Virus record (IMG/VR): IMGVR_UViG_3300046163_000090
Span: 53,478 to 117,477 of that record
DNA length: 64,000 nucleotides
Direction: 5' to 3' (one strand)
Source: a virus
The notes beneath the pieces were generated by a model. That model searched no databases. It was not told where the DNA came from and was given only the letters and a program-made list of their open reading frames with translations. The position numbers and the translations under genes are program-made. This document shows positions 29,510 to 48,842 of the stretch, one piece after another (the first letter of the stretch is position 1; each line of letters starts with the position of its first letter).

Positions 29510-29510
29510 A

Positions 29511-34963: not shown

Positions 34964-34984
34964 AGTAACTAAAATTTAGTTACA

Positions 34985-35689
34985 CTATTTTTGTTCAATT
35001 TTCTTTATGATGTAAGATAGTATTTCACTGCGTAGTATATCCTCGAAACCAAATGAAAAGCATTGAATACCGTTGTCTTTGCTTTGATCGTCATTAAATA
35101 GGTCAAACATCTGCTTAAATCCACTCTTGCCATTAATGTCGCTTTGCATATAATCTCCACAAATAAATAACTGTGAATCTCTACCAATTCTAGTTAATAA
35201 AGTTGTTAATTCTTTAAAAGTAAAATTTTGAGCTTCATCCGCGACAACTACTTTATTTATCCAGTTTGCGCCCCTGAGGAAGTTGACTGGCATTGCTTGA
35301 ACTCTTTCTTTTCGTATTAATTCGTCAACTAATCCCGTGTTTGACGGTATTAGCTCTCTTAATTTTTCATCTAATGGAGCCATATATGGATTAAGTTTTT
35401 CGTGTAGATCTCCAGGTAGAAAACCTAAACCTTTGTCCGCGCTTTCAATTACAGTTCTAACATAAAGCAAGTCTAAATCGTCGTTTTTCTTTAGTTGCTT
35501 GAGTGCGCAGTACACTGCCATGAATGTTTTCGTTGATCCTGCAGGTCCAGAAATAAAAATAACTTTATTTCTCTCATCCAAAGAAAGCCTTACTAATGAT
35601 TTTTGTTTCTCCGTTAGTCCTAAATTCTTAACGGTAATCTTTGAAGGTTTCAATTGGCCGATTTCTAGGTCGTTTTTTCTTTTTGACAT
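34985..35689 (-). CDS. phoH: PhoH-family ATPase
   Basis: GPAGSTKT P-loop, LGFLPGDL.EK..PY, FLRG, ADEAQN, LTRIG and GD..QSD motifs. Confidence 0.93.
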   Translation of the reverse strand: MSKRKNDLEIGQLKPSKITVKNLGLTEKQKSLVRLSLDERNKVIFISGPAGSTKTFMAVYCALKQLKKNDDLDLLYVRTVIESADKGLGFLPGDLHEKLNPYMAPLDEKLRELIPSNTGLVDELIRKERVQAMPVNFLRGANWINKVVVADEAQNFTFKELTTLLTRIGRDSQLFICGDYMQSDINGKSGFKQMFDLFNDDQSKDNGIQCFSFGFEDILRSEILSYIIKKIEQK

Positions 35690-35785
35690 ATTATCTTAAA
35701 TGTAATACACAACAATTCTTAATTAAGTGAAAACTTCAACACGAAATTCTTAAATTGCAATTTCGTATTATTTATTAAATTATTA

Positions 35786-36328
35786 TTATTGTGAATGAAG
35801 TTGAATAAAATCATAAAAAATTTCATTTCTTTTTCTGGGATTAGAATAAAACCAATTCCAAGCATAACTATTTTGTATTTTTGATATTTTATCTTTTAAT
35901 TCATTTATATTGCTCTGTAATATATCGAGCTCTTCTATAGTTATTTGAGAAATGTCGGGGGCAATAGATGCTTGTCTGCCAGCATCAAGCAGTTGCTGAA
36001 GGTTGCCACTTTTTTTTGCTTCGGCAGCTTGGGTATAAATTTTTGTGTTTTGTTTTTTATTATCGACTCTATCAGGATGAGTATTAACCATTATCTTTCT
36101 AAATAGCTTTTTAGAAGAAGAAGTTGATAAATCCGCGCGGACATTTTGAGTCTCAGATTCAGTTTTTGAAAATGGATCGCCAAGATCGTTTTCGGTACAA
36201 AATTTAGAAATACTATTTACAAATTCAATTCCAATTTGATTAAATGTTTTTTTTATTTCTTTATATTCTGTATTCAATTCTTTCCATTCTCTTCTTAATT
36301 TATAATACTTTGTCTTCTTATATGACAT
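35786..36328 (-). CDS. J-domain protein (paralog of 8001..8678)
   Basis: LFRKIMVNTHPDRV; shares a C-terminal WF motif region with 8001..8678. Confidence 0.75.
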   Translation of the reverse strand: MSYKKTKYYKLRREWKELNTEYKEIKKTFNQIGIEFVNSISKFCTENDLGDPFSKTESETQNVRADLSTSSSKKLFRKIMVNTHPDRVDNKKQNTKIYTQAAEAKKSGNLQQLLDAGRQASIAPDISQITIEELDILQSNINELKDKISKIQNSYAWNWFYSNPRKRNEIFYDFIQLHSQ

Positions 36329-36374
36329 TGATGATTAAAGATACATATTATCATAATTAGCCGCCGACATATTT

Positions 36375-36572
36375 TCAATTTATATATTCTATATCTTGTT
36401 TTTTAAATTTTTGTGTTTTATTTTCTTTTGTAAATTGATTATCTATCATTTCTACTATTATATATACTTCTTTATCTACTGTAGTTTCAAGTACTATTTC
36501 TGCTTTAAAACGCCCAAACTTAGTATTTACCCAGCATAAAGAGCGACTTTCGCCGCTTTCTTCCGCATTCAT
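36375..36572 (-). CDS. hypothetical protein
   Basis: 65-aa ORF in the same operon orientation. Confidence 0.55.
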   Translation of the reverse strand: MNAEESGESRSLCWVNTKFGRFKAEIVLETTVDKEVYIIVEMIDNQFTKENKTQKFKKQDIEYIN

Positions 36573-36580
36573 ACATCAAT

Positions 36581-36808
36581 TTACTGTTCCGACTCGGTAT
36601 TTTTAACTAAAGTAATAACAATTTGATTATTATCTGTTATTCTTTCTGAGTCTAATATGTATCCATGGTTGAATACGGCTTTTAATAATTGAATTTTATA
36701 TTGTTTCTCTAATTCAAGCGCAACTTTTTCTGGGGCTTCGCTATTGCCGCAGTTAGAATACCATACATTGTCACTGTATTCTTCGCAAATTGATAAGATT
36801 GTGTTCAT
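36581..36808 (-). CDS. hypothetical protein
   Basis: 75-aa ORF with a GTGTA motif 12 nt upstream. Confidence 0.65.
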   Translation of the reverse strand: MNTILSICEEYSDNVWYSNCGNSEAPEKVALELEKQYKIQLLKAVFNHGYILDSERITDNNQIVITLVKNTESEQ

Positions 36809-36990
36809 TTACTGTATATTTACACTGATTTTAGGCCGCCGATTTTTTTTGATTAAGCAATAATTTGTATATTTTGAATTGTCAGGGGATATTGAGAAAT
36901 ACCACCCCCCGCCACTATGTCAAGCTCTAATGATGATTTTTTTTTGAGAAATGGGTGGGTTAATTATATAAAACTTTTTTTCTTTTTTGC

Positions 36991-37019
36991 TTGCAATTAG
37001 CTTTCTAATATGCTACCTT
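36991..37019 (+). promoter_or_regulatory. sigma70-type early promoter (leaderless)
   Basis: TTGCAA-17-TACCTT with TG extension; ATG 5 nt after the -10. Confidence 0.7.
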
Positions 37020-37024
37020 TAGGT

Positions 37025-37210
37025 ATGTTTAAATTAAATGATATAGTACGTGTCAAATATGGCACACACAAGGGTAAAACCTTTCAAGTCGTGGGCTTCG
37101 CTCGCAAAGATAGCCTCGGCAAGTTAATTACTTGCAAGTTGTATCGTTCTCAGTATCGCTTTAACTTCATGCCTTGGCAAATCGAAGTTAACCCTTTACT
37201 TGCAAAATAA
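37025..37210 (+). CDS. small KOW/SH3-like protein
   Basis: MFKLNDIVRVKYGTHKGK KOW-like motif; start reassigned from the promoter position. Confidence 0.65.
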   Translation: MFKLNDIVRVKYGTHKGKTFQVVGFARKDSLGKLITCKLYRSQYRFNFMPWQIEVNPLLAK

Positions 37211-37222
37211 ATCACTTTGTGC

Positions 37223-37251
37223 TTGCAATTCACTAAAAAATTTCTTAGAGT
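37223..37251 (+). promoter_or_regulatory. sigma70-type early promoter
   Basis: TTGCAA-17-TAGAGT; ATG at 37260. Confidence 0.7.
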
Positions 37252-37259
37252 ATACTTAT

Positions 37260-37448
37260 ATGACAAAGACAACAAAATTCAAAAAGGGTGATGTCCTAAT
37301 CTCACGAGACAAAAAAGTCTTCCAATTTATCCAAGCTATCGAACATGAAGATCTCGGTACTATCGCAATGGTTCGCCCGTATCGCACCAATCGCAAGGTT
37401 GGCATCCGTTTTGAGGATGTAAGAATTCATCCACTTTTTACAAAATAA
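37260..37448 (+). CDS. small SH3-like hypothetical protein
   Basis: MTKTTKFKKGDVL; C-terminal HPLFTK resembles NPLLAK of the preceding gene. Confidence 0.65.
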   Translation: MTKTTKFKKGDVLISRDKKVFQFIQAIEHEDLGTIAMVRPYRTNRKVGIRFEDVRIHPLFTK

Positions 37449-37460
37449 TTATCTTTTTTC

Positions 37461-37489
37461 TTGCAATTAACTAAAAAATTTCTTAAAGT
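37461..37489 (+). promoter_or_regulatory. sigma70-type early promoter (leaderless)
   Basis: TTGCAA-17-TAAAGT; ATG 6 nt later. Confidence 0.7.
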
Positions 37490-37495
37490 AATACT

Positions 37496-37738
37496 ATGAT
37501 AAACAACAATAACACACTCACACAAGTCAGGAAACAATTAGACTCCAAGCTCGATCTTGGGCTCGCACTCTCTAAGGCAGAAGGCAATCTAAACTTTTTG
37601 GCTCAGCAATCAAATTCTAATGATTCAGAAATTGGAATCACTGAAGGCATGGCAATCATGGACTCTTTGCACGCAGTACAACAAGCACGCAAGGCATGGC
37701 AAGACATTCTGCACAATGAAGTTGCAGATAGAAAATAA
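37496..37738 (+). CDS. hypothetical protein
   Basis: 80-aa ORF directly after a promoter. Confidence 0.7.
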   Translation: MINNNNTLTQVRKQLDSKLDLGLALSKAEGNLNFLAQQSNSNDSEIGITEGMAIMDSLHAVQQARKAWQDILHNEVADRK

Positions 37739-37775
37739 AGCTTGACATCATTTTAGTATTAGCCATAATAGAGAC

Positions 37776-37835
37776 ATGACATTCATAATAATAGGACTGA
37801 TAGCATTCACAATAGGAGCATTACAAGGAATATGA
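37776..37835 (+). CDS. 19-aa hydrophobic peptide MTFIIIGLIAFTIGALQGI
   Basis: ATG 6 nt after a TTGACA..CATAAT promoter (37742); ATGA overlap with 37832. Confidence 0.5.
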   Translation: MTFIIIGLIAFTIGALQGI

Positions 37836-38140
37836 GAAAAGTAACACAACAAATAAAACAAGCCTTTGACAATGGGCAAAAGCTAAAAGTAAACAACACC
37901 AAGACAGACGGAAAGACCGTTTGGCTACATGGTAACGCGATTGTCAAACGCGATCCTGACGGGTTAGTGCGTTGGTCGCTCGCAGGTTGGAATACATCAA
38001 CCACACGCGAACGCGTCAATGGTATAGCAAACGCGGGCGTTTGTCAAGTAGATTTTGAACCCGTCTTAAATGGTGAAATAATTGACTCATCCGATTGGTT
38101 TGCTAGCAACCAAAAGTTGCCCGATCCTCTCGTGTGGTAA
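37832..38140 (+). CDS. hypothetical phage protein
   Basis: WLHGNAI..GWNTSTTRERVNGI motif of a type common in phage early genes; AGGA SD. Confidence 0.75.
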   Translation: MRKVTQQIKQAFDNGQKLKVNNTKTDGKTVWLHGNAIVKRDPDGLVRWSLAGWNTSTTRERVNGIANAGVCQVDFEPVLNGEIIDSSDWFASNQKLPDPLVW

Positions 38141-38169
38141 GTTGGCACGAAACCTGTCCCTAACTTCCC

Positions 38170-38236
38170 TAAGTTGCTACCTATCAGCGACTTAGGGAAG
38201 CCTGGCTGCCATAAGTACTTGGTAATCAATGAGTTG
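38170..38236. repeat. 67-bp dyad element E1
   Basis: taagttgctacctatcagcgactta-gggaagcctggctgcca-taagtacttggtaatcaatgagttg. Confidence 0.85.
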
Positions 38237-38247
38237 TACAACAACTG

Positions 38248-38458
38248 AGGCCCGCCCGTAGTAGAACGATTCTATTTGTCGACTACGGTACCAGGCCCGC
38301 CCGTAGTAGAACGATTCTATTTGTCGACTACGGTACCAGGCCCGCCCGTAGTAGAACGATTCTATTTGTCGACTACGGTACCAGGCCCGCCCGTAGTAGA
38401 ACGATTCTATTTGTCGACTACGGTACCAGGCCCGCCCTGGGTATGGTATTGTTATTTG
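38248..38458. repeat. 45-bp tandem array A (4 identical copies plus a degenerate 31-bp end)
   Basis: Unit aggcccgcccgtagtagaacgattctatttgtcgactacggtacc at 38248, 38293, 38338 and 38383. Confidence 0.95.
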
Positions 38459-38544
38459 AGGCCCGCAAAAAAACTTTGTTTTTGTGAATAACTTAAGTGC
38501 TTTTTTCTTGCAATTAGCTTATGCCTATGCTAGGTTATACTTAT

Positions 38545-38718
38545 ATGACAAACGAAATTCAAACACATCTCACAAAATTAGGAATCGACAAGTTCATCGA
38601 AGACAATGAACTTCAGCTTGTGGTCTGCCTTCATGCTGATCATATGCTTTGGGAATGCCCAGGTGGTCACCTGTGGAATATTCAAATGATAAAAGATGCC
38701 GCAGATAAAAGTTTATAA
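38545..38718 (+). CDS. hypothetical protein
   Basis: Follows TTGCAA-17-TAGGTT (38508-38536); start reassigned to MTNEIQ. Confidence 0.65.
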   Translation: MTNEIQTHLTKLGIDKFIEDNELQLVVCLHADHMLWECPGGHLWNIQMIKDAADKSL

Positions 38719-38770
38719 TTAGCCTTTTTTTGCTTGCAATAAAACCATTAAACTGCTAACTTATACTTAT

Positions 38771-38971
38771 ATGACAGATAATGACTCACTCGCCCGTACT
38801 GCTCACGCCTTCGGTATCACTGATGTTGAATTCCAAGCTCAACAAAAAGAGCTTGCGCGCCTCGCTCGCCTCGAAAAGATAATCGCTGACATCAGGAATA
38901 GTGACGAATCTGCCGAGATGCCCGAAGTGCATCGCAATCATGAAGAACCAAGCTTTGACTTATTCAACTAA
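38771..38971 (+). CDS. hypothetical protein
   Basis: Follows TTGCAA-17-TAACTT (38734-38762). Confidence 0.7.
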   Translation: MTDNDSLARTAHAFGITDVEFQAQQKELARLARLEKIIADIRNSDESAEMPEVHRNHEEPSFDLFN

Positions 38972-38993
38972 TAACAATAAACATTATAACACT

Positions 38994-39179
38994 ATGAAAG
39001 ACACCCAACACAAAGGAACACTAGCAAAAGTTAATATTGTCGATGCAAAGACAGGCGAAACCGTTCAAGAGAATGTGATGATGCAGGTTGAAGAATGCAA
39101 AACAATAGACCAAATAAATAAAGAGTTGGCAATGTTTTTCTTGCCAAGACGCTTTGAATTGGTAGAATGGGTAAAATAG
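38994..39179 (+). CDS. hypothetical protein
   Basis: Start reassigned to MKDTQHK to avoid a long overlap. Confidence 0.6.
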   Translation: MKDTQHKGTLAKVNIVDAKTGETVQENVMMQVEECKTIDQINKELAMFFLPRRFELVEWVK

Positions 39180-39191
39180 AAAGGAATTAAA

Positions 39192-39419
39192 ATGTCAGAT
39201 AACACATACAATGGATGGGCAAATTGGGCAACTTGGAACGTCGCCCTTTGGTTAGGAAACGATGAAGGCTTGTATAGGCTTTCCCGCAGGTTCGTGAGTT
39301 ACAAGGATCTTGCTGACGCTCTTGAGGAAGTGGGCACCCTCAGCACTCCTGACGGAGCAAGCTACAAGGATGAAGATCTTGACACCTATGCGCTTGATGA
39401 ATGGCTTATGGACGAATAA
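39192..39419 (+). CDS. conserved phage protein (YNGWxNxxTWNVALW family)
   Basis: YNGWANWATWNVALWLGNDEGLY..TPDG; AAGGA SD; stop 4 nt before E2. Confidence 0.8.
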   Translation: MSDNTYNGWANWATWNVALWLGNDEGLYRLSRRFVSYKDLADALEEVGTLSTPDGASYKDEDLDTYALDEWLMDE

Positions 39420-39423
39420 TCCA

Positions 39424-39490
39424 TAAGTCGTTGATTATTAGGGGTTTAGGCGAGCCAGGCTGCCATAAGTACTTGGTAATCAGTGAATTA
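39424..39490. repeat. 67-bp dyad element E2
   Basis: taagtcgttgattattaggggttta-ggcgagccaggctgcca-taagtacttggtaatcagtgaatta. Confidence 0.85.
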
Positions 39491-39501
39491 TAAAACTCAT
39501 A

Positions 39502-39667
39502 AGGCCCGCCCGTAGTATAACTGCGCTATTTGTCGACTACGGCACCAGGCCCGCCCGTAGTATAACTGCGCTATTTGTCGACTACGGCACCAGGCCCGCC
39601 CGTAGTATAACTGCGCTATTTGTCGACTACGGCACCAGGCCCGCCCGTAGTATAACTGCGCTATTTG
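39502..39667. repeat. 45-bp tandem array B (3 identical copies plus a 31-bp partial)
   Basis: Unit aggcccgcccgtagtataactgcgctatttgtcgactacggcacc at 39502, 39547 and 39592; partial at 39637. Confidence 0.95.
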
Positions 39668-39729
39668 AGGTCTATAAAAAAAACGAAAAAAAGCTTGCAA
39701 TTAGTTTCTGACTTTGCTAGATTACTTAT

Positions 39730-39921
39730 ATGACTAAAAAAGAAATGCTCACCGAAATTACAACACTTCGCAAAGCTCTTCAAAGCTCTGCTGATTTCAC
39801 CCCTACTGATCGCATAGTAATCCGTAACGCGATTGGCGATCTTCAAGACAAGATTGATCTCCTCGACTTTCAAGAGTACGAGGATATTGATTATGGATAC
39901 CATGCCCAGTACGACTTATAA
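39730..39921 (+). CDS. hypothetical protein
   Basis: ATG 6 nt after TTGCAA-17-TAGATT (39695-39723). Confidence 0.7.
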   Translation: MTKKEMLTEITTLRKALQSSADFTPTDRIVIRNAIGDLQDKIDLLDFQEYEDIDYGYHAQYDL

Positions 39922-39926
39922 TAAAC

Positions 39927-40130
39927 ATGAAATACCTACTTACTAAATCAGACGACGCACATATAATCATTGCACAAGTCGATCACTCATTCAAGAAAAG
40001 ATCGCCACATGAGTTCTTCGTTAGTCGAGACTTTTTAAATGTCAATGTTAAAAATGGAAATTTTACTGACATTACCGACAGGGTAGATTGGGATGGCAAA
40101 GTTTGGATACTAACAGAAGATATGACATAA
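39927..40130 (+). CDS. hypothetical protein
   Basis: 67 aa; its TAA is the first 3 nt of E3. Confidence 0.65.
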   Translation: MKYLLTKSDDAHIIIAQVDHSFKKRSPHEFFVSRDFLNVNVKNGNFTDITDRVDWDGKVWILTEDMT

Positions 40131-40194
40131 GTCTTTGATAATCAAGGGCTTAGGCCCGCCAGGCCGCCCTAAGTCGTTGACATTCAGCTACTTA
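40128..40194. repeat. 67-bp dyad element E3
   Basis: taagtctttgataatcaagggctta-ggcccgccaggccgccc-taagtcgttgacattcagctactta. Confidence 0.9.
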
Positions 40195-40249
40195 CAACAA
40201 AAATACATAGAGACACCATATGTCTCTGGGTATGTGTTATACTGTAGGT

Positions 40250-40576
40250 ATGATTACAATAGAACACATTGACGACCAAACTTTCAACGCCACCGTAGAG
40301 TGGGACATGTACCTCATCGAGGTCGAGGGTACAGTATGGACTGAGCAGGAAGATAACCTGTGGGGTGACCAGGTCGAATCAGTTTCGACCATCGCCCATT
40401 TTGACGCAGTGACCGATATGAAGGTGTCAAGCAAAATGACTGGTGATGAAGTTGAGGTGCTAAACCTAGACTTCGCCGAGCTAGTCGTTCACCAGCTCAA
40501 GGAAGCTATCTGTGAGGAGGTCTACTCAGAGGAGTGTCAAGTAGATTATTCGCCATACTATCATGATATGGCGTAA
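40250..40576 (+). CDS. acidic hypothetical protein, copy 1
   Basis: Start reassigned to MITIEHIDD, 6 nt after the extended -10 TGTTATACT; its TAA is the first 3 nt of E4. Confidence 0.75.
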   Translation: MITIEHIDDQTFNATVEWDMYLIEVEGTVWTEQEDNLWGDQVESVSTIAHFDAVTDMKVSSKMTGDEVEVLNLDFAELVVHQLKEAICEEVYSEECQVDYSPYYHDMA

Positions 40577-40640
40577 GTCGTTGGCTGCCAGTAACTTAGG
40601 GCAGCCAGGCTGCCATAAGCCACTAATAATAAGCAACTTA
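40574..40640. repeat. 67-bp dyad element E4
   Basis: taagtcgttggctgccagtaactta-gggcagccaggctgcca-taagccactaataataagcaactta. Confidence 0.9.
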
Positions 40641-40693
40641 TGACATTTCCTTCTTGGCTCGCGGAGCTGATCCCTTTTAGGTTTGGCTATTTG

Positions 40694-40879
40694 CTATTTG
40701 ACCTTTTCGAGCTTAATTGGGCGATCAACAAAATATATGTAATCCTGTTTTACTCTTCTGCCCGCGAGCTTAGCTAATTGTAAAGCCTCGCTTTCTCTTC
40801 TAACTTCGTCAACCATTTTGCCAAAAGCAAACACTTGAAACCATTCTTTGAAATTTGGATTTTTTCTTACACTTATCAT
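40694..40879 (-). CDS. hypothetical protein
   Basis: 61-aa ORF in the E4-E5 block. Confidence 0.6.
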   Translation of the reverse strand: MISVRKNPNFKEWFQVFAFGKMVDEVRRESEALQLAKLAGRRVKQDYIYFVDRPIKLEKVK

Positions 40880-40938
40880 TTTATTCTGCCTCCCATATCA
40901 TATAAAATACAAACAACCAATTCATAAACATTAATAAT

Positions 40939-41202
40939 TCAACTATCATCGTAGACTCCTTTCATTTCATCAGATAGACCAATCTCTTTATCTTCTTCGT
41001 CTATCTCTTCGGCTCTGTCTTTGAGTAAATACTGAGCTTCGTCTGATACATCTTCCTTTTCCACTTTTCTCAAGCCATTGTTGAGTACAAAAGTCTCAGC
41101 TTGTAACTCTCCGACTAATTCCATAATCTCAGAGTTGGGTCGAAAGTTTTTGGACTCACGATGGGCGTTTGCGATGATTGCGATTCTTTCTTGTTCTGTC
41201 AT
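40939..41202 (-). CDS. acidic hypothetical protein
   Basis: 87-aa ORF. Confidence 0.65.
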   Translation of the reverse strand: MTEQERIAIIANAHRESKNFRPNSEIMELVGELQAETFVLNNGLRKVEKEDVSDEAQYLLKDRAEEIDEEDKEIGLSDEMKGVYDDS

Positions 41203-41216
41203 AATAGTAATGTAGT

Positions 41217-41414
41217 TTAGTTTGAGTATAATGTCAAGTCTTCGTTTTCTAATTGTATACGAACATACGGCTCAGAGTATTCATCCACTTCCATGTCTGC
41301 ATAACTACAATCAATAAACTCACCAATATCTTGCAAGCCATTGTTGTTTGCAAAAGTGTTAACCTTAAACGAGCAAATATCATTGCCGTAGTAATCTTCA
41401 ATAACTATCTTCAT
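41217..41414 (-). CDS. hypothetical protein
   Basis: 65-aa ORF. Confidence 0.6.
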   Translation of the reverse strand: MKIVIEDYYGNDICSFKVNTFANNNGLQDIGEFIDCSYADMEVDEYSEPYVRIQLENEDLTLYSN

Positions 41415-41438
41415 GTTTTTAATATAGTTTAGTTGTGG

Positions 41439-41810
41439 TTAGTAGTCAAGCCCTAAATCTCTTTTAAATTCTGCTTTGTCTTCGATTAGCTCATCAACCC
41501 AAACACTTCCTTCGACTTGAGCTTTTGCCATTAAGATAGATACTTGAGCAGGAGATTGCCAACCGACAACATCGTCAGAAGGAGAAAGTGGAATCATTCC
41601 ATTTTTGTCGAAAATTGCAACTTCGTATAAATCTTCTTCCACGCTTCCATATAATCCTCTTCTGCCGTCTTTACCTGCAACAACAGAAATTTCTAGTCCG
41701 TTACCAAAGTCAAGCCTTGCTTGGACTGCGTCATCAGAACCACGATGTGGCTTAAAATCAAGATTGTCAAAGTTTAATAATTCGTTCATTGGTATATTGT
41801 TGTTAATCAT
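41439..41810 (-). CDS. conserved phage protein (FxNGxxxSV..LYEVA..DDVxGW family)
   Basis: FGNGLEISVV..GLYG..LYEVAIF..DDVVGW; leaderless after TTGCAT-17-TAATGT (41845-41817). Confidence 0.8.
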   Translation of the reverse strand: MINNNIPMNELLNFDNLDFKPHRGSDDAVQARLDFGNGLEISVVAGKDGRRGLYGSVEEDLYEVAIFDKNGMIPLSPSDDVVGWQSPAQVSILMAKAQVEGSVWVDELIEDKAEFKRDLGLDY

Positions 41811-41875
41811 ATAAACACATTAAAACTTTTTGCCAATTAATGCAAGAAAAAAGTGAAGTTTTTTACGTTTTGTTG

Positions 41876-41942
41876 TAAGTTGTTGGTTGTTAAGCATTTG
41901 TGGCAGCCTGGCTGCCGTAAGTCGTTGAGGCCCAGCGACTTA
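41876..41942. repeat. 67-bp dyad element E5
   Basis: taagttgttggttgttaagcatttg-tggcagcctggctgccg-taagtcgttgaggcccagcgactta. Confidence 0.88.
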
Positions 41943-41944
41943 GG

Positions 41945-42124
41945 TTAATATCCGAGCCATTCCAAAACTTTCTGTGCTGAGTATCCGTCCTTGTCGCCCA
42001 TGTCCTCGAAAAATTCGCAAATCTCTTCATTAGAAGTGATTCCGTGCCTTGCTAATTCTCGCAAAGCACGATCTTGCGAGATATCAATTCCTTGGGCTGA
42101 GTCGTAATAAGTTTCTTCGTTCAT
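41945..42124 (-). CDS. hypothetical protein (59 aa, not in ORF track)
   Basis: MNEETYYDSAQGIDISQDRALRELARHG..AQKVLEWLGY; stop 2 nt from E5. Confidence 0.7.
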   Translation of the reverse strand: MNEETYYDSAQGIDISQDRALRELARHGITSNEEICEFFEDMGDKDGYSAQKVLEWLGY

Positions 42125-42139
42125 GGTAGTAATGTAGCA

Positions 42140-42868
42140 TTAATGGGCTAAATATGCAATACCTTTTTTGCATCCCTTGATGAAGCATAAGTTGCAATTA
42201 TGAGCTTGGCAAGTTGCAAGAATCTTGCCGTCCTCGCCCTTAACATAAGTTGCAGGGCAAACAAAATGTCCGTCTTGCTCTGCTTTTGTCTTGCTAGTGT
42301 AAACTGAAGTGCCCGCGTCGAGTCCGTCAACTTGTGGAGCTGGCTCATCTACATAAATAGCGCTTGGCTTAATGTTTACATTTTTAAGGCTTGCCAACTT
42401 CTGCAAGTGTGGAAGCTGAGAGTCGCGTTTCCATTCACGAGTTGGAAACCAAAAGCGAATTGTTGGGAATTGTTCGCAAATGCGAATCCACGCGGCAATG
42501 TAGCGAGGGGAAAACAAATCGCCTGAATCATGAACGCGAAAAAGATCTGTGTTTGTTTTCTTGAGCTTTTTCTTGTTGCCTTGCTTGTCGAAATACTTTG
42601 CGCGAATTTGCTTGCACATTGCATCAACAAAAGTGTCGCCATTGTCTTGATGTAGTGACTTTGTTATGAGATTCGCCTTGCCTTGCAAACTTGCCTTGAC
42701 ATTGGAAAACATATAAAAGCCTTTGCAAGCATAGCAAGAATCACAAATAAACTTTTTTGCTTTGTCCTTAATCTTTGCCAATAGCTGCGCGGCAGGGCAA
42801 TACTTGAAAGCTGGAATGTTGAACGAATAGCAAGGCATCTTGCTTGGATTGGATAGTAAGTTAATCAT
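42140..42868 (-). CDS. Gp88-like protein
   Basis: SKMPCYSFNIPA..CP..CDSCYACKG..FRVHDSGD..FWFPTR..CPA..C..C..C; leaderless after TTGCAA-17-TATATT. Confidence 0.8.
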   Translation of the reverse strand: MINLLSNPSKMPCYSFNIPAFKYCPAAQLLAKIKDKAKKFICDSCYACKGFYMFSNVKASLQGKANLITKSLHQDNGDTFVDAMCKQIRAKYFDKQGNKKKLKKTNTDLFRVHDSGDLFSPRYIAAWIRICEQFPTIRFWFPTREWKRDSQLPHLQKLASLKNVNIKPSAIYVDEPAPQVDGLDAGTSVYTSKTKAEQDGHFVCPATYVKGEDGKILATCQAHNCNLCFIKGCKKGIAYLAH

Positions 42869-42906
42869 ATGTAGAATATAGTTTAATTGTTTTGCAATTG
42901 CAAGCT

Positions 42907-43098
42907 TTAAAGCACTAAATCTTCAAAAAAGTCAGGCTCTAGACCGAACTCACTTGAGAAGGAATCTTCCCACTCAAAAAGGCTTCCGCCTTGTCCAACA
43001 TCCATCCACATTTCGGAAGTAAATGCAGTAACTTGATCCTCCGCCTCTTCACGGGAAAGTCCGTCGCGGGTCATTAAGATTTCAATTATTCGTTTCAT
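42907..43098 (-). CDS. hypothetical protein
   Basis: Start reassigned to MKRIIEILMTRDGLSREEA..FGLEPDF, just after a promoter. Confidence 0.7.
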   Translation of the reverse strand: MKRIIEILMTRDGLSREEAEDQVTAFTSEMWMDVGQGGSLFEWEDSFSSEFGLEPDFFEDLVL

Positions 43099-43163
43099 AA
43101 GTATACTATCGCAAAAAAGAGTACTGAATGCAAGCAAAAAGTGAATTAAATTGCATTTTGTTG

Positions 43164-43230
43164 TAAGTCGTTGTCTAACAGTCACTTGCGGCAGCCAGGC
43201 TGCTGTAAATCGTTGAGGCCCAGTAACTTA
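43164..43230. repeat. 67-bp dyad element E6 (divergent, head-to-head junction)
   Basis: taagtcgttgtctaacagtcacttg-cggcagccaggctgctg-taaatcgttgaggcccagtaactta, flanked by TTTTGTTG and CAACAAAA. Confidence 0.9.
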
Positions 43231-43285
43231 CAACAAAAATACATAGAGACACCATATGTCTCTGGGTATGTGTTATACTGTAGGT

Positions 43286-43612
43286 ATGATTACAATAGAA
43301 CACATTGACGACCAAACTTTCAACGCCACCGTAGAGTGGGACATGTACCTCATCGAGGTCGAGGGTACAGTATGGACTGAGCAAGAAGATAACCTGTGGG
43401 GTGACCAGGTCGAATCAGTTTCGACCATCGCCCATTTTGACGCAGTGACCGATATGAAGGTGTCAAGCAAAATGACTGGTGATGAAGTTGAGGTGCTAAA
43501 CCTAGACTTCGCCGAGCTAGTCGTTCACCAGCTCAAGGAAGCTATCTGTGAGGAGGTCTACTCAGAGGAGTGTCAAGTAGATTATTCGCCATACTATCAT
43601 GATATGGCGTAA
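43286..43612 (+). CDS. acidic hypothetical protein, copy 2 (identical protein to 40250..40576)
   Basis: Same protein; one synonymous CAG/CAA difference. Confidence 0.75.
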   Translation: MITIEHIDDQTFNATVEWDMYLIEVEGTVWTEQEDNLWGDQVESVSTIAHFDAVTDMKVSSKMTGDEVEVLNLDFAELVVHQLKEAICEEVYSEECQVDYSPYYHDMA

Positions 43613-43676
43613 GTCGTTGGCTGCCAGCAACTTAGGGCAGCCAGGCTGCCACAAGTCGTTAAGTATCAGCTACTTA
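43610..43676. repeat. 67-bp dyad element E7
   Basis: taagtcgttggctgccagcaactta-gggcagccaggctgcca-caagtcgttaagtatcagctactta. Confidence 0.9.
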
Positions 43677-43692
43677 CGAAAGTGTCAAGCAT

Positions 43693-43725
43693 AAAAAAAC
43701 CCCCTCCCGATATTCAGGAGGGGGC
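43693..43725 (-). terminator. intrinsic terminator for the DUF932 block
   Basis: Minus strand CCCCCTCC-loop-GGAGGGGG followed by T7. Confidence 0.8.
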
Positions 43726-43741
43726 TAACTAATAACACTAT

Positions 43742-44605
43742 TTACATCTCAACTAATTCATTTTCAACTACCGCAATATTTGCAACTTCTTCGGAGTGAC
43801 TTGCAATATCGAAGTCAACGACATTGTCAAGAACAGAATGAAGGGCTTGGGAGCGGTTAGGTAAAGCGGTGAGATTGCCCTTGTAAATCTCAGTAAAAGC
43901 ATTGTAAAGAGAATTAACATTGCGATCCCAAAACTCAGGGTGATCTGAAGATTCCCATTGATCAACTACATCCATAACTTTAGATTTTGGTACAGCTCCT
44001 GCCTTGCAAGCATTAATGATAATATCATTAGCCTCAGCGTTTTTGATTTCTCTGCTTCTGTAAGCATTGATGCGCTCATCTTGACCATGCCAAAAGTTAA
44101 AAAGCTGACCAATTGCACGATTGATGGTGAAATTAAGGTCTTGCAAAATGTTCATCGTGTGTCTACGAGCAAGTTTAATGGTGTTAGTGAAGATTAAGTT
44201 GTCGCAAACAAAAGGAGCATCCCCTGCACAAATGCCCGCAGGGAAACTTTTGTCGTGAGCATTACGAAGACCAATAATAGTCCCTCGGTCTGATTGCTCA
44301 CGGCTTGCATGGTCAACTTGAAACAAACCAAAGTACCTCTGACCATCACGAGCAAGGTTGTGGCATTCGTCAACAATGCTGAAACCTGAATCCTCAAGAG
44401 CGTTACGAGTTTTGCGAATGACCGCCTTGTGTGAAATAGGTTGGTGAGATACTGAAAGCTCGCCTGTCCTTTTGTTTGGTTGAGAGCGAAATGTGCGAGG
44501 CGGTTGACTTACTTGGTAAACTTCGCCTAAAGAAACGATAGTATGCTCGCCTCCGCAAATTCTGAGATTATTCTTTTTGGTGGATGTGTTTTGTGCGTTA
44601 TTCAT
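43742..44605 (-). CDS. DUF932-family protein
   Basis: HQPISH, IGLRNAHDKS..AG..FVCDNL.F, RRHT and LYNAFTE motifs. Confidence 0.8.
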   Translation of the reverse strand: MNNAQNTSTKKNNLRICGGEHTIVSLGEVYQVSQPPRTFRSQPNKRTGELSVSHQPISHKAVIRKTRNALEDSGFSIVDECHNLARDGQRYFGLFQVDHASREQSDRGTIIGLRNAHDKSFPAGICAGDAPFVCDNLIFTNTIKLARRHTMNILQDLNFTINRAIGQLFNFWHGQDERINAYRSREIKNAEANDIIINACKAGAVPKSKVMDVVDQWESSDHPEFWDRNVNSLYNAFTEIYKGNLTALPNRSQALHSVLDNVVDFDIASHSEEVANIAVVENELVEM

Positions 44606-44644
44606 AGTTTTATATAATATAGATGTTAATTATTCTGTCAATAC

Positions 44645-44878
44645 TTAATTACGAGAAATATCATTTTCTTTATCCTCGTACATTTTATAATATGCCTCGG
44701 CTTGACTTGCTATGTCTTTGAATGCAATGCCTATGAGTGAGACTGTCTCTAAATCGTCTTGATCTAATTTTTCGGTTTGAGGAAGAATGAATTTTTGAAA
44801 TAAGAAGTCCATACCTTCAGCCATTACATCTTCGAAGTTTGGTCTTTGTGGTGATTGAAATTCGGGATTAATGTTCAT
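44645..44878 (-). CDS. hypothetical protein
   Basis: 77 aa; AGGAG SD. Confidence 0.65.
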   Translation of the reverse strand: MNINPEFQSPQRPNFEDVMAEGMDFLFQKFILPQTEKLDQDDLETVSLIGIAFKDIASQAEAYYKMYEDKENDISRN

Positions 44879-44991
44879 ACTAATTGCTCCTTGTGTTTAA
44901 GTTTTCTGTGGATGATTTTGTTCTTCATTTTATGTGGGCGGGATTTGGTGAAGAGAACCGCTTTTCTGATCTTTATCTCTCTCGTTTTCAT
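44875..44991 (-). CDS. 38-aa basic peptide ending RKLKHK (not in ORF track)
   Basis: MKTREIKIRKAVLFTKSRPHKMKNKIIHRKLKHKEQLV; first gene after the promoter next to E8; ATGA overlap with 44878. Confidence 0.6.
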   Translation of the reverse strand: MKTREIKIRKAVLFTKSRPHKMKNKIIHRKLKHKEQLV

Positions 44992-45056
44992 ATGTACATA
45001 CTAAGCTACTTTTATAATTAACACAAGAAAAAAATGAAATAAAATGCATTCTGTTG

Positions 45057-45123
45057 TAAGTCGTTGTATATCAAGGACTTTCGCGGGCCTGGTCGCCGTA
45101 AGTTATTGGAAGTCAAGGGTTTA
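45057..45123. repeat. 67-bp dyad element E8
   Basis: taagtcgttgtatatcaaggacttt-cgcgggcctggtcgccg-taagttattggaagtcaagggttta. Confidence 0.85.
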
Positions 45124-45124
45124 C

Positions 45125-45155
45125 AAAAAACCCCTCGCCCATTAAGAGCGAGGGG
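45125..45155 (-). terminator. intrinsic terminator abutting E8
   Basis: Minus strand CCCCTCGC-loop-GCGAGGGG followed by T6. Confidence 0.8.
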
Positions 45156-45173
45156 CCACAGACCTACAACAAA

Positions 45174-45335
45174 CTATTTGTTCAAAGGCATTTTACCCTG
45201 CTTGATTTCGAGGTCCTCGAGTAATCGATCATGCAGCCTTTTCTGCCTATAATATTCGGGAGTATTTTCCCCGTACAACTCACGCACTGCAAGTTGGTAA
45301 CCCATTTTTCTGACTTTACTTTCTAAGTTTTCCAT
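45174..45335 (-). CDS. hypothetical protein (53 aa, not in ORF track)
   Basis: MENLESKVRKMGYQLAVRELYG..; AAGGAG SD. Confidence 0.55.
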   Translation of the reverse strand: MENLESKVRKMGYQLAVRELYGENTPEYYRQKRLHDRLLEDLEIKQGKMPLNK

Positions 45336-45339
45336 AGTA

Positions 45340-45573
45340 TTAGCTCCTTACCATTGAGATTATTCTGTCGTAACGAAATGAACGCACGGCATTCCTATTG
45401 TAGCAATGAGCCCGAAAGCCAGCGACAGGGAGACCTTCCTTCATGTTACCAAATTCGTTTCTGTGCTTTGGTTTAGAGATGGTATACATTGCCGTAGTAC
45501 CTTCTTGAGTTTTGTATACCACTTGATATACAGGGTTGAACAGGTTTGCAATTTTAGCTAGTAGCTTCTTCAT
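45340..45573 (-). CDS. small WYL/SH3-like protein
   Basis: C-terminal RSFRYDRII matches the WYL-type RxFRxDRI motif; start reassigned to MKKLL after an AGGAGG SD. Confidence 0.55.
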   Translation of the reverse strand: MKKLLAKIANLFNPVYQVVYKTQEGTTAMYTISKPKHRNEFGNMKEGLPVAGFRAHCYNRNAVRSFRYDRIISMVRS

Positions 45574-45793
45574 GTTGTGTTTCCTCCTTAAGGGGGTTAA
45601 TGTTGTAGTGATTGTAAGCATCAGTGACTTCTTCAGCTGATTCGAAACTTACAGAAATGATATCTCTCTCGAAATGTGGATTCCAATCGTCGTGGTTCTC
45701 TTCAAAGAACAATTCCCATTGCTCAGTGCCCTCGTTAAAACTTGGTAAATCCAATGGTCTGCCGATGCAGGTTGCTTCTATGTAATTATTCAT
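45554..45793 (-). CDS. hypothetical protein
   Basis: Start reassigned to MNNYIEA after a GGAGG SD. Confidence 0.6.
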   Translation of the reverse strand: MNNYIEATCIGRPLDLPSFNEGTEQWELFFEENHDDWNPHFERDIISVSFESAEEVTDAYNHYNINPLKEETQHEEATS

Positions 45794-45998
45794 TGTCATC
45801 ATCCTCCATAATATAGATTCCAAAATGAGATGCAAGCTCTAAGATCATTTTATCTTTATTGAAATAACGAAAAGCAAAAGTGAGTAAATCTTCTTGCTCT
45901 TTTCCTGTGTGCCCATCTCTAAGCTCGTCATATATCTCAAAGATGTTCATGTTCCAATTCCAACCTTCTACTCTTGATTCAATTTGTGCGTCTGTCAT
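45786..45998 (-). CDS. hypothetical protein
   Basis: 70 aa, in a tightly packed operon. Confidence 0.65.
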   Translation of the reverse strand: MTDAQIESRVEGWNWNMNIFEIYDELRDGHTGKEQEDLLTFAFRYFNKDKMILELASHFGIYIMEDDDNE

Positions 45999-46213
45999 TA
46001 TACTGCCCTCTCGTTTACTTGTTCTAACATTAATTTGAATTGATCGAAAACTTTTTGCTTACTACCTTTAAGCCCAAACTCTTGTTTGACGATAGAATAA
46101 CAAGATCTGCCTCGACTCATTTGTAGTCCTTGGGTCTCAAGCTTTAAACCTCTAAGAAGAGTTTTGTAGCGAAACATTTCGATTTGTTCAGGTGTGTCTA
46201 ATACTGTTGTCAT
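45998..46213 (-). CDS. hypothetical phage protein
   Basis: LKLETQGLQMSRGRS..KQEFGLKGSKQKV. Confidence 0.7.
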   Translation of the reverse strand: MTTVLDTPEQIEMFRYKTLLRGLKLETQGLQMSRGRSCYSIVKQEFGLKGSKQKVFDQFKLMLEQVNERAV

Positions 46214-46227
46214 GATTTTTCCTTGTG

Positions 46228-46455
46228 TTATAGTTGTGCTGATTGAAAAGATGATTCTATCCTAAGCTGATTTTGCAAGCTTGTCAAGTCTGTAATGATA
46301 TCATCTAAAACTTCTTCTGCGCTTTCAGTGGTGATGTAATCAACCCCTAAACTCTCAGCCTTCTTTAGGTTAATTGGATCTGTAGGATTGCACCAACGAA
46401 GATTGCCATGAGTGATTTGCATTATCATTTGCCTAATCTCTCCCTGCGTCATCAT
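46228..46455 (-). CDS. hypothetical protein
   Basis: 75 aa, in a tightly packed operon. Confidence 0.6.
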   Translation of the reverse strand: MMTQGEIRQMIMQITHGNLRWCNPTDPINLKKAESLGVDYITTESAEEVLDDIITDLTSLQNQLRIESSFQSAQL

Positions 46456-46634
46456 TGTTTTGTCCTTTCTGCTTTGATCTTTGCATTTTGGTCGTCAACA
46501 ATTTTAGCTAAACGTTTTAATTCAAACATAACATTTTGCTTGTCTTCGTATCCTGCTTTTGGGTTCTTCAGTACCTCAATCATTGGAAGAATGAGTGCTG
46601 ACCATGTTGGTGTCATATCTATTGTTTCTGTCAT
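46452..46634 (-). CDS. hypothetical protein
   Basis: TIDMTPTW motif; 60 aa. Confidence 0.65.
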   Translation of the reverse strand: MTETIDMTPTWSALILPMIEVLKNPKAGYEDKQNVMFELKRLAKIVDDQNAKIKAERTKQ

Positions 46635-46648
46635 AATATAAAACTAAA

Positions 46649-46852
46649 CTATCTGAGTGCTGTTGTCAACTCATTTTCAAACTTTTTTGCTTCAACTAAT
46701 TCTTTAAGGTCATAGCTGATAGTGCATAAACTTTCGTTAATGCCATTCATTACCTTGATGAGATCTGCCATGTTTCCATAACGACGATTTTCTAATAGTT
46801 CGTCGGCAACTCCATCAATTGCACATTCTATTCTTTTTAATTGTTCTTTCAT
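46649..46852 (-). CDS. hypothetical coiled-coil protein
   Basis: 67 aa. Confidence 0.6.
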   Translation of the reverse strand: MKEQLKRIECAIDGVADELLENRRYGNMADLIKVMNGINESLCTISYDLKELVEAKKFENELTTALR

Positions 46853-46853
46853 T

Positions 46854-47009
46854 TTAATGTTTGCCTTTCTTTGTAAAATTTTCTAAATAATATGTAACCC
46901 GTTCAATAGCTTCATTTTGTTTTAGTGTTTCCTCTTTCATTTCAGGGTCGTCAATAACATTTTGATTGGCTAGGTCTAATACAATTTCTAATGCTTCTGT
47001 GATATTCAT
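46854..47009 (-). CDS. hypothetical protein (51 aa, not in ORF track)
   Basis: MNITEALEIVLDLANQN..; fills the gap and has an ATGA overlap with 47006. Confidence 0.6.
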   Translation of the reverse strand: MNITEALEIVLDLANQNVIDDPEMKEETLKQNEAIERVTYYLENFTKKGKH

Positions 47010-47419
47010 GATATATATGCTGTTACTTTGTTGTGTGTTAATGAAACTTCATCTGCGTAGTATACAAAACTTTCATCCTTCTTGTCAACAAAAGTTTCAT
47101 ACTTGTATGGATTGTATGTTACCTCAACTTCCCTAGTGATAACTTGGGGATTGCGAGATACATTCTCAGCATCCTGAAGATAGCCCTTGACGAAAGCATG
47201 GACATTCTTACGCTTCTCGCGAAGCACTTTCTCTCTACCCTTGACATCGACATGAAAATAGCAATCCCATAATCCAATAGCATGATCCTTTGGGATGTGT
47301 GCCTTGACTAATCCATGTTGCTTGATGCTCCAACAATCCTTGTGAAGATTCTTGTAAACATATACGGGACGATTCTTTTTAATCGTGTATCTTGGGTCGT
47401 GTTGGTTTCTTAAGATCAT
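47006..47419 (-). CDS. conserved phage protein (VYxNLH..KRKNVHAFV..YNPY family)
   Basis: VYVYKNLHKDCWSI..GREKVLREKRKNVHAFVKG..VTYNPYK..FV. Confidence 0.8.
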   Translation of the reverse strand: MILRNQHDPRYTIKKNRPVYVYKNLHKDCWSIKQHGLVKAHIPKDHAIGLWDCYFHVDVKGREKVLREKRKNVHAFVKGYLQDAENVSRNPQVITREVEVTYNPYKYETFVDKKDESFVYYADEVSLTHNKVTAYIS

Positions 47420-47484
47420 AAGAATACAGTAATCAATTTTTGTACTGATTGCAAGAAAAAAGTTAGTTAAATTGCATTTTGTCG

Positions 47485-47551
47485 TAAGTTGTTTACAGTA
47501 AGGGACTTACGGCAGCCTGGCCGCCGCAACCCGTTGGTATTCAACGAGTTG
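47485..47551. repeat. 67-bp dyad element E9
   Basis: taagttgtttacagtaagggactta-cggcagcctggccgccg-caacccgttggtattcaacgagttg. Confidence 0.85.
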
Positions 47552-47573
47552 CGTAATAATTTAGCAGTTCAGC

Positions 47574-47711
47574 TTAGCTGTTAAAATGCTTGGCTATTAA
47601 ACCTCTAAGAGCAACAGGAGCTTCGCGATAGTATTTTCTTTGACCGAAAGACCAGGTTAATTGTTCGCCATCGATAAGTCCGTTAGTAGTGTTGTTGCTT
47701 GCGTTGTTCAT
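47574..47711 (-). CDS. 45-aa hypothetical protein, sole gene between E9 and E10 (not in ORF track)
   Basis: MNNASNNTTNGLIDGEQLTWSFGQRKYY..; GAAAGGA SD and a TTGACA-17-TAATGT promoter. Confidence 0.6.
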   Translation of the reverse strand: MNNASNNTTNGLIDGEQLTWSFGQRKYYREAPVALRGLIAKHFNS

Positions 47712-47805
47712 TTTTTTCCTTTCGTTAGGGTTATTGTTAATATACATATACATTAGTCGATTAATGGCCTCATGTCAAACTTTTTTTCATCTTTTTTTAA
47801 TTTTT

Positions 47806-47872
47806 TAAATCGTTGACTATCAAGGGTTTCCAGCAGCCTGGCCGCCACAAGTCGTTGATGGACAGCACTTTA
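47806..47872. repeat. 67-bp dyad element E10
   Basis: taaatcgttgactatcaagggtttc-cagcagcctggccgcca-caagtcgttgatggacagcacttta. Confidence 0.85.
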
Positions 47873-48071
47873 TGAAATTTTTAATTCATATTCAATTTTA
47901 ATTTAATTTAATTTTATATCATATATATTATATTTGAGACTTATTTATTTGTTATTGATTTGTTCCCTATTGATTTGTATATTGTATACTGTATTTATTG
48001 TTATGATCTCCAGCCAGCAATAAAACAAACAGTGCAAATTAAGGTCCACATGATTGAGTCTAGATATTCCA

Positions 48072-48326
48072 TTACTTGGCGACGTTTAAAGCTTCCTTGA
48101 GAAGGTCGTACTGTTTGCCCGACAAAAAGACTGACCTGCAATAGTCTATGTCGTTGCCCTCTACATCTGCAATTCGATCTGCAGCTAACCAGGCTGATAC
48201 CCGTTCGCGTTCCATGCCTCCCCATTTAATAACAACTTTCATTGCGGGAAAGTGCTCGGCGATCTCTGCGAGCTCTGCTTTAGTAAGGTATCCGTAGTTT
48301 GATAATATGTTTTTTAATGTCTTCAT
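48072..48326 (-). CDS. hypothetical protein
   Basis: 84 aa with a TTGACT-type promoter upstream. Confidence 0.7.
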   Translation of the reverse strand: MKTLKNILSNYGYLTKAELAEIAEHFPAMKVVIKWGGMERERVSAWLAADRIADVEGNDIDYCRSVFLSGKQYDLLKEALNVAK

Positions 48327-48363: not shown

Positions 48364-48414
48364 AAAAAACCCCCCAATGTAAGGAAATACCACTAAACTT
48401 ACGAAGGGGGGTTT
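48364..48414 (-). terminator. terminator-like hairpin downstream of the candidate ncRNA
   Basis: Minus strand AAACCCCCC..GTAAG..CTTAC..GGGGGGTTTTTT. Confidence 0.7.
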
Positions 48415-48435
48415 ATGTACAATGAAACAAAATAT

Positions 48436-48738: not shown

Positions 48739-48744
48739 TTAAAA

Positions 48745-48842
48745 TATTAAAGAACAAAAAATTTAGATTTATTTTATTTATTTGAGTTAATCTTTCTCAA
48801 TGTTATGGTATATATTATACTATATTAAATGTTATTTGTCAA
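48745..48842 (-). promoter_or_regulatory. consensus sigma70 promoter plus boxA-like antitermination motif
   Basis: TTGACA(48842-48837)-17-TATAAT(48819-48814); TGTTCTTTAATA at 48756-48745. Confidence 0.85.

Follow-up and report, generated by a model that had tools for sequence, protein, structure and literature searches.

The stretch of DNA analyzed here, hereafter the window, is the right-hand 64 kb of the linear, 117,477-bp IMG/VR virus record IMGVR_UViG_3300046163_000090 (CheckV completeness 84%). It harbors an array of small gene cassettes or blocks (C1, C2, C4 and so on) punctuated by ten 69-nt elements (E1 to E10). Within this array, a 426-nt segment carrying a single open reading frame (ORF), which encodes a protein referred to as X, is present twice. 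The segments and their ORFs are as follows, in window coordinates:

40190..40615, plus strand: duplicated segment copy 1, with the last 6 nt of the E3 right box, a leader, the 118-aa ORF, and the left box and core of E4
40220..40576, plus strand: ORF X copy 1, 118 aa, isoelectric point 4.05, with 26 D+E against 3 K+R
43226..43651, plus strand: duplicated segment copy 2, identical to copy 1 at 424 of 426 nt
43256..43612, plus strand: ORF X copy 2, its protein 100% identical to that of copy 1

The copies were compared in a MAFFT alignment of 40100-40700 with 43136-43736, and a repeat search found the same pair. Both bear out what an earlier note, made from the sequence of this DNA, had described, namely a 426-nt repeat recurring 3036 nt apart with 2 substitutions. 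The first substitution (G/A at 40348/43384) is a synonymous change at a codon third base, CAG/CAA, while the second (T/C at 40592/43628) falls within the left box of E4/E7. In the alignment, identity starts at 40190/43226, at the ACTTAC closing the right box of E3/E6, and stops at 40615/43651, past the central palindrome and an A of E4/E7, which is where the same note had placed its limits. The flanks around both copies are unrelated, and copy 2 (ORF 43256-43612, plus strand) is a plus-strand island among minus-strand blocks, both as had been reported.

Each element consists of a 25-nt box, a 15-nt GC-rich palindromic core (GGCAGCCWGGCTGCC) and a second 25-nt box, for 69 nt in total, and the 25-bp boxes are themselves near-palindromic. 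Scanned for paired boxes over its full 117,477 bp, the contig has exactly 10 elements, all at about 38169-47873 and none elsewhere. The pattern of the central palindrome gave 9 matches where 0.11 were expected (none of 100 shuffles reached 9), and that of the box gave 15 matches with 0.00 expected from shuffles. The ten elements can be listed as follows:

E1, 38169..38237, plus strand: box 1, core, box 2
E2, 39423..39491, plus strand: element
E3, 40127..40195, plus strand: upstream of copy 1, with a right box unlike the X-associated right box elsewhere
E4, 40573..40641, plus strand: downstream of copy 1, with left box and core common with E7 and a C4-side right box
E5, 41875..41943, plus strand: element
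E6, 43163..43231, plus strand: upstream of copy 2, with the C5 block's conserved, outward-facing promoter-like 40-mer as its left flank
E7, 43609..43677, plus strand: downstream of copy 2, with a right box that goes with the C7 block
E8, 45056..45124, plus strand: element
E9, 47484..47552, plus strand: element
E10, 47805..47873, plus strand: element

All ten elements have the same polarity, regardless of gene direction, and in 8 of them the plus strand folds more stably (sum -232 vs -188 kcal/mol). Judged by eye, a 40-nt left flank common to E5, E6, E8 and E9 reads as an outward promoter region for minus-strand blocks, and extended -10-like sites precede the ORFs. The elements have no T runs, and classical terminators lie beside E7 and E8, so that the elements themselves would not be the terminators. 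The short motif GTGTCAAGC is found to the right of several elements (window 43678-43692; locus L099, 8737-8752 and 12099-12114) and also near the end of ORF X (40535-40541); its minus strand contains TTGACA. Rfam has no family for the elements. In the phage collection, megablast with the 10-kb array found nothing and blastn with one element gave 3 chance-level matches (E 3-10). A literature search with box 10-mers and with phage palindromic-repeat and T4-superfamily/Sinorhizobium repeat terms, covering main texts, found the element undescribed except in a table on phage DLP6, to which we return below.

Protein X has no family in Pfam or PHROGs. A large protein search retrieved 3 clusters only, all at 89% identity or more, and tblastn with X against the phage collection found nothing; the complete genomes G001-G004 gave no match either, an empty result in that search being uninformative by itself. 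The AlphaFold2 model of X, built from a 7-sequence alignment, has a mean pLDDT of 76.7, and a Foldseek comparison of this model with the PDB gave no match at E <= 0.001 (best E 0.11). That X could be a DNA mimic or an anti-defence protein is only a guess, made solely from its acidic composition.

Regarding the age of the duplication, a 28-kb viral contig (L001), found by a search with protein X, is syntenic with the window across the array (66-98% nucleotide identity). It has ten elements, each at the position of its window counterpart, with a longer and different core, and X fills the same two slots. Its two X copies are identical over a 377-nt core, and the within-genome identity spans both flanking elements whole. 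Five metagenome contigs (L122-L126) are closer relatives than L001. Among these, L122 (13 kb) also has two X copies, the first of which lies upstream of the C1 block instead of between C2 and C4; the X slot differs from the window in L124 and L126 as well. Over the cassette core, the two copies within a genome differ at 1/377 positions in the window, 0/377 in L001 and 2/188 in L122. Between genomes, the differences amount to 25-26/377 for the window and L001, 7-8/377 for the window and L122, and 24/377 for L122 and L001. In all three genomes with both copies visible, each copy resembles its paralogue more than it does the copy in the corresponding slot of another genome. Since the copies are alike within genomes and differ between them, the pattern is that of gene conversion or repeated re-copying and not of one young event, and it points either to a duplication of greater age whose X copies would have been kept alike within each genome or to X being copied anew repeatedly. 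The same effect can be seen in the ten element cores, which differ between the window and L001 yet are uniform within either one. Paralogue pairs that have diverged (60-80% aa identity) are found in 7 further arrays (L079/L095 counted once), which indicates that duplication recurs.

The comparison with relatives also informs on where the junctions fall. Seven elements downstream of X were examined. The left box (loop GCTGC) travels with X in all seven, and the core does so in all except that of L126, while the right box matches the following block and is of three types, namely C4, C7 and the C1 array (also the right box of E1). In L126, an X-type box 1 is joined to an E1-type core, i.e., the junction lies between box 1 and core and not after the core. 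On the upstream side, X follows one and the same right box in window copy 2, L122 copy 2, L123, L124, and L125, which makes five contexts, and not in window copy 1. The proposal in the earlier note that both breakpoints lie in the equivalent box of the element thus applies to the window genome only; it fails in L001, where whole elements are shared, and in L126, where the junction separates box 1 from core. As the right-box interior is excluded on both sides of the window segment, a single reciprocal crossover cannot give both identity edges, since identity starts at the 3' edge of one right box and ends at the 5' edge of a second. These edges most plausibly mark where homology between sites stops, as set by different past exchanges in each lineage, and they would not represent the cut sites of a dedicated enzyme.

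Other features of the array that enter into these comparisons are:

40642..43162, minus strand: cassettes C4 and C5, separated by E5, in the interval that parts the X copies; the ORFs include a GP88-family gene (42140-42868)
43698..43726, minus strand: intrinsic terminator of the classical type belonging to the C7 block, next to E7 and separate from the element
47553..47804, minus strand: cassette C9, whose 59-aa ORF has a promoter-like site of its own, in reverse orientation in L001

The view that the elements define mobile units has held up, with an empty site, an inverted C9, a relocated X and an extra element found in relatives. The empty site, anticipated as a fusion of E6 and E7, is found in L066, where one element lies between the flank of the C5 side and the terminator flank of the C7 side, without X. 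In the C9 inversion between the window and L001, homology starts inside the proximal half-box, and part of C2 is also inverted between these two genomes. In L122, about 147 nt of promoter-like flank together with an element replace a 23-nt spacer of the window and L001. More distant homologues of X (29-31% identity) can be found in L031, L043, and L054 as single-gene cassettes, with elements close on both sides and different neighbours; L033 also has an X homologue, 29 nt past which the contig ends. These comparisons show that related phages gain or lose, relocate, invert and duplicate the blocks between elements, with junctions inside the elements at varying positions. As a separate observation, 45-bp tandem arrays lie right after E1 (38248-38427) and E2 (39502-39636), and the same 45-bp tandem array comes after X in L122, L124, and L126.

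The elements belong to a wider family. A scan of viral contigs with the box pattern matched more than 119 stretches, and at least 387 paired-box elements were found in 98 of the 119 viral loci among the matches listed. The consensus of the box over 352 unique elements is cG-TAAGTCGTTGA-nWn-TCAAsGACTTA-CG, with the AA, TT, CA, and TT positions near 100%. Box spacing is near-uniform per contig and differs between contigs (41/42, 48-51, 53, or 58): it is 42 in 10/10 window elements and 53 in the 10/10 syntenic elements of L001, and elsewhere 42 in 16/16 (L089), 58 in 11/11 (L064), and 50 in 9/10 (L112). The GC core is likewise uniform per genome and different between genomes. Within one contig, L093, the core is found in both orientations relative to the boxes, which implies that whole elements or cores can be flipped. 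Covariation between the box arms is weak: out of 4 variable positions, 2.27 and 2.33 are paired, where shuffles give 2.16 and 2.25, and long-range pairing is not above shuffles. As the arms hardly covary, sequence-specific recognition of double-stranded DNA is favoured over a selected hairpin, and a reading of the elements as attC-like folded hairpins was rejected on this ground. The boxes are clustered within one 6-12-kb region in three of four complete element-bearing genomes (99-100% complete). They are not restricted to viruses, the exact 25-bp box being present in 81 stretches of bacterial genomes (L128-L207) from Treponema, Latescibacterota, Verrucomicrobiae, Planctomycetota, Fibrobacter, Gemmatimonadales, Akkermansia, and Prevotella. 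In Latescibacterota, it occurs in 15 separate stretches of one 5.6-Mb contig. The bacterial boxes often lie within larger genome-specific repeats, and several come right after tRNA 3' ends.

Both halves of the box fit the consensus site of IHF, WATCAANNNNTTR (as given in PMC10380432), and stand as two back-to-back halves. The strict consensus is found in 382/1408 half-sites, 353/704 boxes, and 257/352 elements, and WAT at positions unused in detection is enriched, being present in 511/1408 half-sites. No HU/IHF gene (PF00216) over the cut-off was found in the window's own contig (0/1) or in the complete element-bearing genomes (0/4), so that a binder would be host-encoded or of another family. 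Putative binding of an IHF-like protein to the boxes is a lead, not a result. The 11-mer TCAACGACTTA, which is the strong half of the box, can also be found in Stenotrophomonas phage DLP6 (KU682439), in tandem pairs with a 25-nt period before gene clusters. Such AAAATCAACGACTTA pairs lie, e.g., at 45298-45347, 48041-48090, and 74427-74476 of the DLP6 record (L127) and are followed, at two of these three, by a GC hairpin resembling a terminator and by a -10 of sequence TATACT/TATAAT/TATGAT. DLP6 therefore resembles the present case in having the box half-site in pairs, followed by a GC-rich hairpin and a TATACT-type -10. In contrast to the palindromic box, the DLP6 motif is a direct repeat, and its hairpin follows the pair and has a T run. 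The DLP6 paper lists the motifs as paired predicted promoters, with 22/25 PHIRE motifs in groups of two (PMC5349666), and the DLP6 motif is accordingly a predicted promoter.

With respect to mechanism, genes for tyrosine recombinases (PF00589) and serine recombinases (PF00239) were not found in the window's own contig or in any of the four complete element-bearing genomes, nor were Y1 transposases (PF01797) in the same four genomes (E <= 0.01); the control for the PF00589 search matched in 14/14 genomes. A RecA/UvsX-type gene (PF00154, over cut-off) is present in 4/4. Taken together, the varying junctions, the negative searches for these recombinases and the presence of RecA in all four genomes favour general homologous recombination or conversion at conserved repeats. 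We consider it reasonably probable that the duplication is a retained one-gene cassette in an element-punctuated array, whose elements are recombined by the phage's general homologous recombination. The elements would primarily have a function of their own between genes, most likely that of docking a protein that binds or bends DNA, because the box halves fit the IHF consensus. Since they are the longest conserved repeats in the array, RecA/UvsX-type recombination would cross over or convert between them, leading to deletions or circles, insertions and, because each box is its own inverted repeat, inversions. A crossover between the direct X repeats would remove the stretch 40642..43162, while conversion or recombination would keep the two X copies and the element cores uniform per genome.

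Several observations weigh against this account of homologous recombination at the elements. The region is a mosaic, C5 and X being 94% identical to L001 and C7 only 70%, so that a history of one split with later conversion simplifies matters, and the pattern would be no different under repeated re-copying. Synteny also breaks away from the elements, through internal replacements in C1, C2, and C8, which means that part of the pattern is ordinary intergenic mosaicism. For the proposed docking sites, only 4/40 half-sites of the window fit the strict IHF consensus, and the window has 17 IHF-consensus matches against 10.1 +/- 3.2 in shuffles, 2/100 of which reach 17. RecA (PF00154) was not found in the window's own contig, which is 84% complete, and the ORFs of this contig that were scanned have structural and accessory functions, with none for replication. 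Finally, no excised circle, no deletion between the copies and no ongoing conversion was seen in Logan contigs.

A single recent copy-and-paste of the cassette in this genome, with two substitutions since, is what the earlier note had proposed as a recent copy or insertion. Identity at 424/426 nt and edges within elements would suit such an event, and L066 shows that slot 2 can be empty. We nevertheless hold it to be unlikely, as L001 has the same two slots filled, with copies 25-26/377 from those of the window and none between its own, and L122 also has two copies. With 0-2 differences within genomes against 7-26 between them, separate lineages would need independent recent insertions into the same two slots; moreover, the E3 right box differs from the X-associated right box of 5 other contexts.

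Similarly improbable is a dedicated site-specific cassette system, analogous to an integron or a shufflon, in which an unrecognised recombinase, or a structure-specific nuclease acting on the folded or protein-bound element, would excise, insert and invert cassettes, the duplication being the re-insertion of an X circle. Such a system would account for the junction between core and right box in 6/7 downstream elements and for a C9 inversion that starts at the box dyad. It would also suit a core that is uniform per genome and different between genomes, as for a site co-evolving with its enzyme, the shared polarity and more stable plus-strand folding of the window elements, and the fact that X is still a single-gene cassette at about 30% identity. 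It is, however, at odds with the absence of the recombinases and transposases named above, with the variable position of the junctions, as seen in L126, in L001 and upstream of window copy 1, and with the two window edges, which one reciprocal crossover does not yield. Box arms with almost no compensatory change and cassettes with their own promoter-like sites in both directions also argue against it.

It is more doubtful still that the elements are sites of an unrecognised phage-borne cassette exchange in which a host IHF-like bender sits on the boxes and a phage enzyme cuts at or near the GC core. If this were true, single genes such as X would be excised, re-inserted, inverted and copied in a targeted way, and this activity would have left its trace in cores and X copies that are uniform within a genome. 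Lytic aquatic phages would then have a gene-shuffling device resembling an integron, the box of which would also be in use in the chromosomes of bacteria from several phyla.

The two-copy state itself could be followed in sequencing runs. Among 24 listed runs, 17 hold at least 74% of the words of the stretch, 16 being labelled seawater metagenome and 1 freshwater, while the listed RNA runs hold only 5-8%. In Logan contigs from four seawater runs of four studies, among the pieces listed, all four junctions are bridged with 0-1 mismatches by contigs ending about 30 nt inside the repeat. The junction from X to C7 (from 43598/43622) is seen in all four runs, and those from C2 to X (ending 40219), from X to C4 (from 40562/40586), and from C5 to X (ending 43255) in three of the four each. 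None of these pieces spans a whole X copy, and depth over the repeat in Logan contigs is not readable as copy number; the apparent presence of both copies on one molecule rests on assembled contigs. The merging of two strains, with one copy each in different slots, into one contig is very unlikely. It would be in keeping with a contig of metagenome origin, with short-read contigs that break at the repeat and with relatives in which X occupies other slots. However, the duplication is not peculiar to a single assembly, since the independent contigs L001 and L122 each hold two copies; in addition, all four junctions recur in other runs, and the intervening 2.6 kb is continuous with either copy. 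In run X2, two low-depth joints, 39434->40143 (E2 to E3, skipping 708 nt, at depth 2.5 with a side of 32 nt) and 38133->39428 (opposite strands), fit element-to-element events; with a depth of 2.3-2.5 and sides of 32-36 nt, they were not counted.

Concerning the setting of the array, the genes of the window include those for the large terminase (TerL), rIIA, rIIB, baseplate and virion proteins, PhoH, two sigma-like proteins and a tail-fibre-J-like protein. Between TerL and its counterparts in Bacillus, Clostridium, and Lactococcus phages, identity is 23-26%. With this distance and the tail-fibre-J-like gene, the contig does not evidently appear to be that of a T4-type phage. The array has a G+C content of 39-43% against about 32-35% in its flanks, and its cassette genes have no family, or families of unknown function only, in Pfam and PHROGs. 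Its ORFs lie on both strands, with promoter-like sites inside cassettes, and 42 promoter-like sites were counted in a promoter-consensus scan, shuffles giving 26.7 +/- 4.8. It is an accessory and probably early gene array of an uncultured seawater phage.

Other features can be found around the array. A full-length Rfam match to the manA RNA motif (RF01745) lies at window 48433-48643 on the minus strand (81.7 bits for a gathering score of 55.2, E 6.8e-20) and corresponds to the candidate structured non-coding RNA placed at 48364-48842 by the earlier note. One sigma-like protein (19363-20118, minus strand) has a Sigma70_r2 match (E 3.2e-5), and the other (49250-49675, minus strand), just past the array, a Sigma70_r4 match (E 2.7e-10). 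In the window, about 14 kb of virion genes (21047-34963) separate PhoH from a terminase/sigma-like/zinc-ribbon block, which PhoH adjoins in L001 (4200-5400), L033, L058, L102, and L114, indicating a large indel or rearrangement relative to the window. Outside the window, giant ORFs of 5331, 1653, and 4252 aa (contig 318-16313, minus strand; 16310-21271, minus strand; 30322-43080, plus strand) occupy much of the other half of the contig.

Several known systems invite comparison. IHF-binding BIME elements (RIB/RIP) of enterobacteria are paired extragenic palindromic units with an IHF-consensus site. The present elements resemble them in being paired extragenic palindromic units with a site fitting WATCAANNNNTTR; unlike in BIMEs, the IHF-like motif appears to be the palindrome itself, as two back-to-back halves. 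The REP/BIME-RAYT system differs further, as the RAYT-type Y1 transposase is lacking here (PF01797 0/4) and the boxes begin with (C)GTAAGT instead of a GTAG tag. Integrons share with the array the placing of imperfect palindromic sites between small genes, the travelling of part of the site with the cassette, and the existence of empty and filled sites. In contrast, no IntI-type recombinase is found (PF00589 0/1 in the own contig, 0/4 in the complete genomes), there is no R''/L''/L'/R' layout and little pairing covariation. The cassettes here have their own promoter-like sites, both orientations and variable junctions, whereas those of integrons are promoterless and lie in one orientation behind a common promoter. 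Shufflons and invertases differ in that PF00239 and PF00589 are absent here.

PeSL-like homologous recombination at conserved elements fits best. As described by Arbiol et al. 2010 (PMC2839356) and Comeau et al. 2014 (PMC4122927), a PeSL (promoter-early stem-loop) of T4-type phages is a sigma-70-type promoter with one stem-loop that terminates transcription, and the mechanism proposed there is homologous recombination between repeats, possibly with circles. Both systems have short conserved intergenic repeats in a hyperplastic accessory region, beside small genes of unknown function with their own promoters or, in the present array, promoter-like sites, and both have insertions, deletions, replacements and displacements between close relatives at the repeats. 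Unlike PeSLs, the elements described here have two 25-bp palindromic boxes around a genome-specific GC core, with separate classical terminators alongside; the boxes are conserved in no fewer than 98 diverse viral loci and are present in chromosomes of bacteria as well, and the window contig is not evidently T4-type. On present evidence, the system is not a new kind.

The duplicated cassette and its relatives provide a clean natural record of accessory-gene movement in uncultured marine phages. In this record, a site is seen both empty and filled, one cassette is flipped, one turns up in at least three contexts, and paralogues are identical within genomes. The resemblance of the box to back-to-back IHF sites, together with the presence of its strong half in the cultured Stenotrophomonas phage DLP6, is a testable lead. 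PeSL-type modular shuffling is thereby extended from cultured T4-type phages to a large aquatic phage group with a different and much more conserved junction element.

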